DNA from: an archaeon GW2011_AR20
Lineage (GTDB): Archaea > Nanobdellota > Nanobdellia > SCGC-AAA011-G17 > GW2011-AR20
Assembly (NCBI GenBank): GCA_000830315.1
Contig: CP010426.1
Span: 442,743-506,742, forward strand
Length of the DNA stretch: 64,000 bases
Direction of reading: 5' to 3'
Shown: positions 56,835 to 58,681 of the stretch, one piece after another
Position numbering within the stretch: the stretch's first letter is position 1
Layout: the number at the start of each line of letters is the position of its first letter
Made by a program: the position numbers and the translations under genes
The notes under the pieces: generated by a model
What the model was told of the DNA's origin: nothing
Database searches by the model: none
Seen by the model: only the letters and a program-made list of their open reading frames with translations

Positions 56835-56989
56835 CGCCGAGGGTGGGATTTGAACCCACAAGTCCTTGCGGACACTGGATCTTTGTGTGGTACTACAGGT
56901 CTCTGAAGTACGACTGTACTTAGCAATCTTACGCCATAATTTCAACTCAGGAATCATGTCAGCGCAGTACCAGATTGTGCCACCTCGGC
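56835..56989 (-). tRNA. tRNA-Ser(GCU) with two introns: 29/30 (56929-56959, 31 nt) and 37/38 (56881-56920, 40 nt)
   Basis: Exons 56960-56989, 56921-56928 and 56835-56880 give an 84-nt cloverleaf GCCGAGG..CTGGA TT-GCT-AA TCCAG, long variable arm, GTGGG-TTCAAAT-CCCAC, CCTCGGC-G73; both introns form BHB-like folds. Confidence 0.92.
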
Positions 56990-57628
56990 ATGATGCATAC
57001 TGCCGGTTTTTTGAAAAATTTTATACTTATTTAAATGTTTCGAGTTTTTTGGTCTGATTTCTTTAATCCATTTATGTAGCATGAATTTTCCCGCAACACA
57101 TAATTTTGCACTATTATTGCAATTCCAAATATAATTACGAAAATTGAGCTCATTTAGTAGGATAGATAGATCTTTAATTAATTTTTTGGAAGCTAAATCA
57201 AATTCAATTTTTGGATAATAGTTATTTTTGGTATGATTTTTATCAAATCTAAGGCACCCATCGGTATCGAATAATCCTCTTAAAAACGCTAATTTAATTG
57301 AATGAGATGACTTTTTCACATATTCAGGTATTTTTACGGTATAAGTTTTTGTCCCCGGTCTAAATCCATAATGAAGGAAGAATGTTGTATCCTCTTTTTT
57401 AGAAATTTGAACCCCATAACATCCGTTCTTTCCCCCGCTTCTAAATTTTGCATGAAATTTTTTGTGAAATATGGTTTGAAGTAATTGGATGACGTTGTGG
57501 TCGTAATATTCCTTTTCATTTAATGCGCCTCTTAATTCCCAAACTAAGCTTCGATTAGTTTTGTATAATGTTCCATCTCCTATATGCATGCCAATCAATT
57601 CAGCAATTTTTGAATTTATTTTTAACAT
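56954..57628 (-). CDS. Free-standing two-motif LAGLIDADG homing endonuclease; last 12 codons run through tRNA-Ser exon 1 into intron 1
   Basis: IAELIGMHIGDG and AFLRGLFDTDG; C-terminus HAEVAQSGTALT* is the tRNA 5' exon read as codons. Confidence 0.88.
   Translation of the reverse strand: MLKINSKIAELIGMHIGDGTLYKTNRSLVWELRGALNEKEYYDHNVIQLLQTIFHKKFHAKFRSGGKNGCYGVQISKKEDTTFFLHYGFRPGTKTYTVKIPEYVKKSSHSIKLAFLRGLFDTDGCLRFDKNHTKNNYYPKIEFDLASKKLIKDLSILLNELNFRNYIWNCNNSAKLCVAGKFMLHKWIKEIRPKNSKHLNKYKIFQKTGSMHHAEVAQSGTALT
57029..57041 (-). promoter_or_regulatory. BRE/TATA-like element inside the LAGLIDADG CDS, upstream of the functional tRNA-Ser
   Basis: GAAACATTTAAAT, identical to 57831-57843 upstream of the orphan 5' fragment. 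Confidence 0.55.
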
Positions 57629-57858: not shown

Positions 57859-57872
57859 GAAAGGTTTAAAAG
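57859..57872 (+). promoter_or_regulatory. BRE/TATA promoter of the initiator tRNA
   Basis: GAAAGG-TTTAAAAG ending 23 nt before A1 at 57896. Confidence 0.65.
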
Positions 57873-57895: not shown

Positions 57896-58080
57896 AGCGG
57901 AGTAGGACAGAAGTAATTAAATTACTGTCGAATCTGGAGTGTCCGTCGAAATAGAAATCCTATTGCGTAAGGCTCATAAGACTGTTTGAGACACCCGAAA
58001 ATATAAGATTTAATCTATATTCGGGACGGTCAGTGGTTCAAAGCGATATCTAAAATTTCGAGGAAGTCCACTCTCCGCTA
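57896..58080 (+). tRNA. Initiator tRNA-Met(CAU) with five introns: 57911-57932 (15/16), 57949-57970 (29/30), 57979-57992 (37/38), 58000-58027 (44/45), 58043-58066 (59/60; alternative register 58042-58065, 58/59)
   Basis: Six exons give AGCGGAG TA GGAC AGTCTGGAGT GTCC G TCGGG CTCATAA CCCGA AGGTC AGTGG TTCAAAT CCACT CTCCGCT A (75 nt), all four stems paired; A1-U72, G11-C24 and three G-C pairs at 29-31/39-41 are initiator hallmarks. Confidence 0.92.
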
Positions 58081-58681
58081 CATTCTCATTTAAAAAGGAA
58101 TTTATTCTACTTATATTTTTTTGATTATTTGAACCAATTATTTTATCCCACTTCTTAAGCTCTCTTTTACCATTTATTTGAACCCTAATTTTACCTTTCC
58201 CTATCTGGTAGGCTCCGAATTTAAAACCATATTTATTTAAAATACTTAAAAATTGATTTTGCATTGGTGAAGGCATAACCTTCATTTCTATTCTAGGATA
58301 TCTTACGCCATTATTGTTCACAATTGATAAACAACCGTCTGTATCAAAATAACCTCTAATAACCTCCTTATCATAGCGCAATGCGGAAGATGGTATTATT
58401 GCACGATTCCACTTAGGTGATTTCATAAGACCAATTTTATTTATTAAAATATTTATTATCTTTTGATTAAATATAAATAAATCAATCGCATTCTCGTTCT
58501 TTCTCTTTTTTATTATTGGTTTGACCTTAAATAATTTTATTACCAAATTTTTAATATAATTTAAATATGCTAAATCATCAATGAAATTAAGAGTAATTTT
58601 TATTCTATTATATTTTCTAGATATATGCCCATTACCCAATAAAACTCCTATAAATTCTGCTAAATCTCTATTAATCTCCAC
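58010..58681 (-). CDS. Free-standing two-motif LAGLIDADG protein (first motif GNG), antisense-overlapping the tRNA-iMet 3' half
   Basis: LAEFIGVLLGNG and EVIRGYFDTDG; GTG start; stop at 58010-58012 lies in intron 4. Confidence 0.85.
   Translation of the reverse strand: MEINRDLAEFIGVLLGNGHISRKYNRIKITLNFIDDLAYLNYIKNLVIKLFKVKPIIKKRKNENAIDLFIFNQKIINILINKIGLMKSPKWNRAIIPSSALRYDKEVIRGYFDTDGCLSIVNNNGVRYPRIEMKVMPSPMQNQFLSILNKYGFKFGAYQIGKGKIRVQINGKRELKKWDKIIGSNNQKNISRINSFLNENVAESGLPRNFRYRFEPLTVPNID

Follow-up and report, generated by a model that had tools for sequence, protein, structure and literature searches.

How many times can the gene for an essential tRNA be interrupted and still yield a working product? 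The question is raised by 185 nucleotides (nt) at positions 57896-58080 (+) of the window, by which we mean the whole analyzed stretch of 64,000 nt from the archaeon GW2011_AR20 contig CP010426.1 (GCA_000830315.1); gene coordinates are given as window positions. A first-pass annotation had read these 185 nt as an initiator tRNA-Met gene fragmented by five introns. Our analysis indicates that the locus is very probably the functional and sole initiator tRNA-Met gene of its genome, interrupted by five introns of the bulge-helix-bulge (BHB) type. The sequence evidence supports a five-intron initiator tRNA-Met gene of a groundwater archaeon of the Woesearchaeota/Nanoarchaeota (DPANN) that is predicted to be spliced by proteins.

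The gene consists of six exons of 15, 16, 8, 7, 15 and 14 nt separated by introns of 22, 22, 14, 28 and 24 nt, all on the forward strand, and the lengths first proposed hold to the nucleotide. Exon 1 (57896-57910) corresponds to tRNA positions 1-15 and supplies the 5′ strand of the acceptor stem, U8 and A9, the 5′ strand of the D-stem, A14 and G15. It is followed in the D-loop, at site 15/16, by intron 1 (57911-57932). Exon 2 (57933-57948; tRNA 16-29) contains the remaining D-loop, the 3′ strand of the D-stem, G26 and the start of the anticodon stem, which intron 2 (57949-57970) interrupts at site 29/30. Exon 3 (GGCUCAUA, 57971-57978; tRNA 30-37) includes the CAU anticodon and ends at intron 3 (57979-57992), which occupies the canonical anticodon-loop site 37/38. 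Exon 4 (ACCCGAA, 57993-57999; tRNA 38-44) is separated by intron 4 (58000-58027), at site 44/45 in the variable region, from exon 5 (58028-58042; tRNA 45-59), which carries variable-region bases, the 5′ strand of the T-stem and most of the T-loop. Intron 5 (58043-58066) lies in the T-loop at site 59/60, so that its placement in the T-arm mirrors that of the 37/38 intron in the anticodon arm. Exon 6 (58067-58080; tRNA 60-73) comprises U60, the 3′ strands of the T-stem and acceptor stem and the discriminator A73; CCA is not encoded. All five intron locations are those named in the first-pass annotation.

Joined, the exons read AGCGGAG-UA-GGAC-AGUCUGGAGU-GUCC-G-UCGGG-CUCAUAA-CCCGA-AGGUC-AGUGG-UUCAAAU-CCACU-CUCCGCU-A (75 nt). 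ARAGORN identifies this spliced 75-mer as tRNA-Met(cat). Its fold of lowest energy (-30.1 kcal/mol) is the cloverleaf, with stems of 7, 4, 5 and 5 base pairs (bp) in which every position is paired. The product carries the initiator marks A1:U72, G29-31:C39-41 (GGG/CCC) and A73, and its 7-nt anticodon loop CUCAUAA has U33 in front of CAU. The 75-nt product, its fully paired stems and its initiator hallmarks had all been claimed beforehand, and they stand. The exons have a G+C content of 56%, the introns of 30% and the genome of 31.7%. Upstream of the gene, at 57859-57872 (+; -37 to -24), lies a putative promoter made of a purine-rich B recognition element (BRE), GAAAGG, and a TATA box, TTTAAAA, at -31 to -25 from tRNA position 1. 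A run of seven T at 58116-58122 (+), 36 nt 3′ of the gene, is a possible transcription terminator.

The splice junctions were set by exon alignment alone and then checked for helices. At all five introns, the four exon bases that end 2 nt before the 5′ splice site oppose four intron bases that end 2 nt before the 3′ splice site. This is the geometry of a BHB motif, with a 4-bp helix between two 3-nt bulges that are each cut after the second base. The exon/intron helices quoted in the first-pass annotation are present, with three or four of their four positions paired and a 3-nt bulge at each splice site. They are GGAC/GTCG at intron 1 (bulges AG↓A and AA↓U, the arrow marking the cut), CCGT/GCGT at intron 2 (bulges CG↓A and AA↓G), CUCA/UGAG at intron 3, CCCG/CGGG at intron 4 and UUCA/AGGA at intron 5. 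These central helices have 3, 3, 4, 4 and 3 pairs, respectively, or 17 of 20 overall, and sliding the 3′ partner by 1 to 6 nt in either direction lowers the total to 5-11 of 20. Random position pairs in the genome reach at least three of four pairs with P = 0.166, which puts the chance of all five doing so at about 1.3e-4.

Beyond the central helices the motifs are less uniform. The inner helix adjoining the bulge has 6 bp in intron 1 (AGUAAU/AUUACU), 5 bp in intron 2 (AAUAG/CUAUU) and 3 bp in intron 5 (CGA/UCG), and it is imperfect in intron 4, which has a local fold of -9.4 kcal/mol. Intron 3 has a loop only, so the hairpin that had been claimed for every intron is found in introns 1, 2, 4 and 5 and is missing from intron 3. 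A convincing outer helix is seen only at intron 3, where it is the anticodon stem, and at intron 5, where it is the 5-bp T-stem. The set as a whole falls short of the strict helix-bulge-helix-bulge-helix (hBHBh′) form with both outer and inner helices; given outer helices at only two introns and uneven inner helices, the motifs are mostly of the relaxed kind.

Orthologous genes came from three sources: a BLAST comparison of 60 relatives with the precursor as query, a search of 240 genomes from the same order for a pattern built around the anticodon exon (97 matches, versus about 12 with a reversed control), and the few archaeal hits (Candidatus Woesearchaeota, Nanoarchaeota and Nanoarchaeia) among the listed matches of a 596-Gb scan with the pattern GGACAGN{3,30}GGAGTGTCCGT. 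The last pattern was too loose, and its listed matches were mostly chance ones in GC-rich bacteria. Parsing with clade-adapted references, a stricter intron penalty and the requirement of a perfect cloverleaf left 83 unique genes, which form a family across the taxonomic order, carry 0-7 introns and all splice to stems of 7/4/5/5 bp. Nine of them have no intron, 13 have one, 11 two, 18 three, 18 four, six five, four six and four seven. Their 243 introns fall at about 13 sites (4/5, 7/8, 15/16, 20a/21, 28/29, 29/30, 37/38, 43/44, 44/45, 53/54, 59/60, 64/65 and a few singletons). Site 37/38 is occupied in 51 of the 83 genes, 29/30 in 26 (22 of them with CCGT/GCGG) and 59/60 in 19 (mostly with TTCA/TGAA). 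At least three of four central-helix positions are paired in 243 of 243 introns and all four in 178, counts that are a biased test since the aligner used for the orthologues rewards such pairs; the junctions of the window gene were found without that reward.

The comparison confirms both the junctions and the product. Alleles that are without a given intron join their exons exactly at the predicted junctions, as evidenced by the loci L010, L003 and L006 for intron 1 and by congeners for introns 2-5. Exon and intron strands of the central helix covary at site 15/16 (GGAC/GTCC, GAAC/GTTC, GGAT/ATCC), at 44/45 (CCCG/CGGG, CCCA/TGGG), at 53/54 (CAGT/GCTG, CGGT/GCCG, CGTT/GACG) and at 20a/21 (CAGG/CCTG, TAGG/CCTA). 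Among 52 distinct spliced sequences, 100% of the cloverleaf cells are paired, and compensatory double changes occur at 13 of the 21 pairs; we counted 135 compensatory cells, whereas shuffles gave 32 ± 4 and sliding the partner gave no more than 17. A1:U72 is present in 52 of the 52 distinct sequences, and the anticodon-stem GGG/CCC is invariant in all orthologues. A gAAAGGTTTAAAAG-type BRE/TATA element stands at an equal distance upstream in most orthologues and in genus-level metagenome alleles.

Splicing of such motifs would depend on the tRNA endonuclease EndA, and an ε2 or (αβ)2 enzyme had been expected from the relaxed motifs. This expectation failed. The genome has one EndA gene, at C1:140580-141188 (-), which encodes 190 amino acids (aa) with an N-terminal PF02778 and a catalytic PF01974 domain. 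No EndA paralogue or β subunit was detected by phmmer among all genome open reading frames (ORFs) of at least 70 aa, the next best hit having E = 0.36. The β subunit of Nanoarchaeum equitans matches the EndA query at 3e-16, so the search would have picked up a comparable β subunit. Among solved relatives, the best matches are the N. equitans α subunit 3IEY_A (2e-37) and the M. jannaschii α4 enzyme 1A79 (4e-33), and the predicted EndA is a single α-type subunit. Compared with 3IEY_A, it is without six extra residues beside the catalytic His. The ligase RtcB is represented at C1:107587-108961 (-), where the Pfam model matches in three pieces in different frames with stops between them.

An α4-type EndA has precedent in several DPANN lineages with many disrupted tRNA genes, and broad EndA specificity has been tied to the inserted L3 loop (Kaneta et al. 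2018, PMC5829648). GW2011_AR20 resembles those lineages in its lone catalytic α subunit, the missing β paralogue and a genome rich in non-canonical tRNA introns. It may differ from the broad-specificity enzymes with an L3 loop, as the six-residue insert of the N. equitans α subunit is absent. The precursor would be a natural multi-site substrate for studying how a single-subunit α-type EndA handles relaxed motifs.

The expression of the gene can be pictured as follows. Transcription from its own BRE/TATA promoter would give a precursor of about 190 nt. In each motif, the last six nt of the upstream exon provide one helix strand and two bulge nt, and the four intron nt two bases before the 3′ end the other strand, while the intron's own hairpin supplies the inner helix in four of the five introns. 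As each motif is confined to one exon-intron unit, the five can form locally, independently and in any order, probably co-transcriptionally. The strands of the D-stem and anticodon stem are held in splice-site helices, so the tRNA body cannot fold before the introns leave. By analogy with established archaeal tRNA splicing, the single α-type EndA would cut both 3-nt bulges of each motif, RtcB would join the exons and CCA would be added post-transcriptionally.

The same arrangement predicts a lower limit on exon length. The exon half of a motif consists of four helix and two bulge bases, hence an internal exon must have at least 6 nt if every motif forms in the primary transcript. Among the 169 internal exons of the 83 orthologous genes, parsed by an aligner that imposes no exon-length floor, the minimum is 6 nt (18 cases), and 103 are 6-9 nt long. 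One of the shortest is UUCAAA, between the 53/54 and 59/60 introns of L012. The only exons below 6 nt are first exons of 4 nt, where the rest of the helix comes from the 5′ leader. In the window gene, the exons of 8 and 7 nt hold the six motif nt with two and one to spare. This suggests a design rule in which local motifs of six exon nt would allow function in any order and keep internal exons from ever being shorter than 6 nt.

Several observations weigh against a functional gene from which all five introns are removed. The outer helix is absent or weak at introns 1, 2 and 4, although an α4-type EndA is, in the classical view, strict. A single mismatch is present in three of the five central helices (GGAC/GTCG, CCGT/GCGT and TTCA/AGGA), and none of these versions recurs in the homologous introns, most of which pair perfectly; the mismatches may lower splicing efficiency or may be errors of the assembly. 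The minimum-energy fold of the whole precursor has -56.2 kcal/mol (z = -3.8) compared with -24 to -27.5 kcal/mol for the conformer that contains all five motifs, and equilibrium folding of the whole precursor did not reproduce the five motifs. Finally, the single-contig genome of 829,411 bp is estimated to be 95.7% complete, not fully so.

Because the all-motif conformer lies so far above the minimum-energy fold, the motifs must form kinetically or through stabilization by the enzyme. We infer that their formation is presumably co-transcriptional or enzyme-assisted and read the folding result as a statement about the pathway, not as counter-evidence to splicing. The minimum-energy fold of the precursor pairs UCGAAAU at the exon 2/intron 2 junction (57945-57955) with AUUUCGA in intron 5 (58054-58062), along with other long-range contacts; the pairing of these two segments could be due to chance or be a folding intermediate.

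The rival that fares best takes up the weaker splice sites: only some of the segments would be removed by EndA and RtcB, the others being retained, cut by another nuclease, or left as breaks in a nicked tRNA held together by pairing. Introns 1, 2 and 4 with their missing outer helices, an EndA of the classically strict α-type (PMC5829648) and an equilibrium fold that disfavors the all-motif conformer would all fit. Yet the register of a 4-bp helix and 3-nt bulges is common to all five junctions, relatives form perfect helices at these sites that change in step with the exon, and a stem or loop of an essential tRNA would be lost with any segment left in place. Moreover, the α4-type EndAs of DPANN archaea have been linked with heavily disrupted tRNA genes (Kaneta et al. 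2018, PMC5829648). We regard partial removal as quite improbable compared with excision of all five introns.

Whether the locus is the gene in use depends on what else the genome offers. No other initiator gene was found in the 829-kb single contig by intron-aware alignment, an RF00005 scan and a reading of the CAT tRNAs, a check for which the first-pass annotation had called. Elongator tRNA-Met has a G1:C72 terminal pair, compared with A1:U72 in archaeal initiators. Only one further tRNA has a CAT anticodon; it lies at C1:135863-135936 (+), with G1:C72 and without the GGG/CCC run. This elongator-type tRNA also has G37, whereas A37 is usual for tRNAs that read ANN codons. A second "tRNA-Met" reported by ARAGORN at C1:689515-689625 (+) was rejected, as from its sequence it reads as a class II tRNA with a long variable arm (GCCC-GCAA-GGGC) and G73; this tRNA gene has one or more introns of its own.

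The locus could then be a decaying, non-functional copy, with initiation carried out by a tRNA in unassembled sequence or by an elongator-type tRNA-Met. The mismatches of the three central helices, seen in no orthologue, would suit a pseudogene, as would the incomplete assembly and the congeners, which carry just one or two introns. However, exon changes would be expected to build up first in a pseudogene, whereas here none of the 21 stem pairs is broken and the conserved initiator positions are all preserved. The promoter is conserved, no second locus rises above noise in the single-contig genome, and in L200, which represents another genus of the family, the five intron positions are identical and the product is intact. 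A pseudogene is, in our assessment, marginally less probable still than partial removal, and the functional five-intron gene is preferred over both.

The five-intron structure also had to be recognized in a gene that annotation tools do not see. We used a custom aligner that fits the 75-nt product to DNA with long insertions at a fixed cost and no term for splice motifs; the five-intron parse comes out of this alignment without any BHB information. The locus reaches an intron-aware score of 115, or the full 150 less the penalties for five introns. The runner-up among all other loci on both strands of the genome scores 48, and ten genome copies simulated with a third-order Markov model peak at 42-50. 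The possibility that the parse is a chance construction has effectively been refuted by these scores, the BHB register and the covariation, and its probability is negligible: five freely chosen boundaries are many degrees of freedom and background loci do reach 26-50 with many spurious "introns", but the locus stands at 115 against a null maximum of 50 with an identical parse in the absence of a BHB term, every junction is confirmed by orthologues, and exons and introns differ in G+C.

The prediction that standard annotation would miss the gene proved right. ARAGORN, run with and without its intron search, detected no uninterrupted tRNA in the raw DNA of the locus, and the locus was missed by the Rfam gathering scan of the window, by the whole-genome RF00005 scan and by a permissive Rfam scan at E <= 10. 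As a proxy for the spliced product, four intronless orthologues score 63-65.5 bits with RF00005 (cut-off 29); one of them, L152, has three differences from the window product, of which two together make a compensatory pair. The introns are only 14-28 nt long, compared with hundreds of nt for self-splicing introns, and no credible Rfam match to a group I or group II ribozyme core was found at the locus even at E <= 10. Kaneta et al. noted incomplete tRNA sets in DPANN archaea and predicted disrupted genes that had escaped identification (Kaneta et al. 2018, PMC5829648). The gap corresponds to the initiator, which will be listed as missing when DPANN genomes are annotated by standard tools.

The window gene stands out within its own genus, where four congeners and four metagenome alleles of genus level have only the 15/16 intron, with or without one at 53/54. 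The congener promoters are close to that of the window gene, and the intron that the congeners carry at 15/16 shares 86% identity with intron 1. For intron 3, the match is to 37/38 introns from other families, at 93% identity. A donor search for introns 2, 4 and 5 returned best identities of 0.59-0.73, which is within the range between non-homologous introns. In a metagenome scan for strain-level intron polymorphism, the yield was limited to the four genus-level alleles, each having one or two introns; near-identical strains were absent. The five-intron state may be an ancestral one, retained here and lost in congeners, or it may have been acquired from another allele; the sequences fit either course.

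How far does the gene go beyond known systems? The first-pass annotation supposed that five introns would exceed the known maximum. This holds against the peer-reviewed maximum of three introns per tRNA gene (Kanai 2015, PMC4390854; tRNAscan-SE 2.0, PMC8450103), found for example in Pyrobaculum calidifontis tRNA-Glu(UUC) and P. islandicum tRNA-Pro(UGG) (PMC4390854, PMC8450103). It does not hold against a bioRxiv preprint of 15 October 2026 on Asgard archaea, which reports "up to five in a single gene" with a mean of about 2.2 per gene genome-wide and leaves the route of intron arrival open, nor against relatives of the genome itself, which reach seven. We found no paper on a multi-intron initiator tRNA in Woesearchaeota and no published intron count per tRNA gene reaching seven. 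The proposed mechanism is not new; the novelty lies in the degree, in the lineage, in the type of EndA and in which gene is affected, and five is not a record within its own clade. The limit of three stated in reviews and in the tRNAscan-SE 2.0 paper is too low, with five introns here, seven in relatives and internal exons down to 6 nt, and an essential initiator tRNA would tolerate five to seven interruptions.

The multi-intron tRNA genes of Thermoproteales share the short, protein-spliced introns at canonical and non-canonical sites, the BHB or relaxed BHB motifs and the use of EndA and RtcB. The window gene differs from them in having five introns instead of three at most, in belonging to DPANN and not to Crenarchaeota, in being an initiator gene and in its internal exons of 7-8 nt. 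Its genome encodes a single α-type EndA, whereas theirs is an (αβ)2 enzyme with a Crenarchaea-specific loop. With the genes of the Asgard preprint it shares the many introns per gene, the BHB-compatible sites and the tendency to be missed by standard annotation, especially in the D-arm. It stands apart from these by superphylum, by one essential gene with five introns (seven in relatives) and by the LAGLIDADG genes that recur alongside.

In the nuclear genome of the red alga Cyanidioschyzon merolae, tRNA genes have up to three BHB-type introns (D-arm, 37/38 and T-loop), and splicing intermediates show that the order of removal follows motif stability (PMC3728597). The "four introns" of that paper are four T-loop introns over all genes, not in one gene (PMC3728597). 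Unlike the window gene, which is known from its DNA, C. merolae is a eukaryotic case with at most three introns whose splicing is experimentally confirmed. The split and tri-split tRNAs of Nanoarchaeum equitans and Caldivirga maquilingensis are also broken at intron-site positions with BHB-like motifs cut by EndA. They are joined in trans from separate loci, whereas the six exons here are collinear within 185 nt behind one promoter.

The seven-intron orthologues, L177 (G118:C8), L178 (G119:C11), L181 (G122:C4) and L185 (G123:C22), and the six-intron ones, L184, L189, L207 and L228, belong to other families of the order, and all eight splice to perfect cloverleaves. The hand-checked L177 gene has 243 nt with introns at 4/5, 15/16, 20a/21, 29/30, 37/38, 44/45 and 64/65. 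One genome bin contains two initiator copies on separate contigs, L176 (G116:C16) with five introns and L184 (G116:C56) with six, the extra one at 64/65; the gene may be truly duplicated, or the bin may mix two strains.

The 3′ end of the window gene is shared with another gene. An ORF of 223 aa at 58010-58681 (-), resembling a LAGLIDADG homing endonuclease (PF14528, E = 1.5e-6), converges on the tRNA gene, and overlaps it with its last ~24 codons, which cross exon 6, intron 5 and exon 5 in antisense and reach into intron 4, covering the last 71 nt of the gene. A second LAGLIDADG-like ORF of 224 aa at 56954-57628 (-; PF14528, E = 1.1e-12) lies 268 nt upstream of the initiator gene and overlaps a tRNA-Ser(GCU) gene. 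This neighboring tRNA-Ser(GCU) gene, at 56835-56989 (-), spans about 155 nt including introns and was missed by the RF00005 scan as well. The genome contains five LAGLIDADG-like ORFs, of which three touch intron-bearing tRNA genes, with just 3.4% of the genome lying that near a tRNA gene.

Such ORFs recur at orthologous loci. Among the 44 loci with enough flanking sequence, 17 have a LAGLIDADG ORF, which converges on or overlaps the tRNA 3′ end in 14; the five intronless loci among the 44 have none. The carriers named are the window locus, L003, L006, L008, L015, L075, L084, L155, L160, L165, L169, L170, L175 and L181. The endonuclease tree disagrees with genome taxonomy at moderate support, as the window copy groups among those of other families and the copy of congener G002 falls in the other subclade. 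The endonuclease gene may thus travel with the interrupted tRNA allele. A simple model with one endonuclease target for all carrier alleles was rejected, as the LAGLIDADG-bearing loci have no intron site in common.

One might go further and regard the interrupted initiator gene and the LAGLIDADG gene abutting its 3′ end as a mobile unit. Alleles of the conserved gene with few introns, or with a different set of them, would be cut by a free-standing homing endonuclease, and repair from the endonuclease-bearing allele would co-convert the tRNA gene with its introns. The introns, too short to encode the endonuclease themselves, would break up its recognition sequence and so protect the carrier allele. 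It fits that the window genome is the only member found in its genus with five introns, the others having one or two. The carriers, however, share no intron site, and introns 2, 4 and 5 are without a recognizable donor. We consider the mobile unit a rather unlikely, tentative proposal. If true, it would give a route for the arrival and spread of archaeal tRNA introns and could explain up to seven of them in one essential tRNA. The recurrent LAGLIDADG neighbor is in any case a concrete lead on the origin of tRNA introns, the question that the 2026 Asgard preprint left open.

A last observation concerns the flanks of some orthologues. Those with a 4/5 intron, judged from the flanks of L176, L177, L178, L181, L184 and L189, are without the usual TATA box at -30, and their flanks are complementary, with CAGAGGA on the 5′ side and TCCTCTG on the 3′ side. 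The window gene has no such complementary flanks. In L200, the leader and trailer are complementary over 12 bp (AAGAATCTCAAA ... TTTGAGATTCTT). These complementary flanks look like a processing stem around the tRNA.

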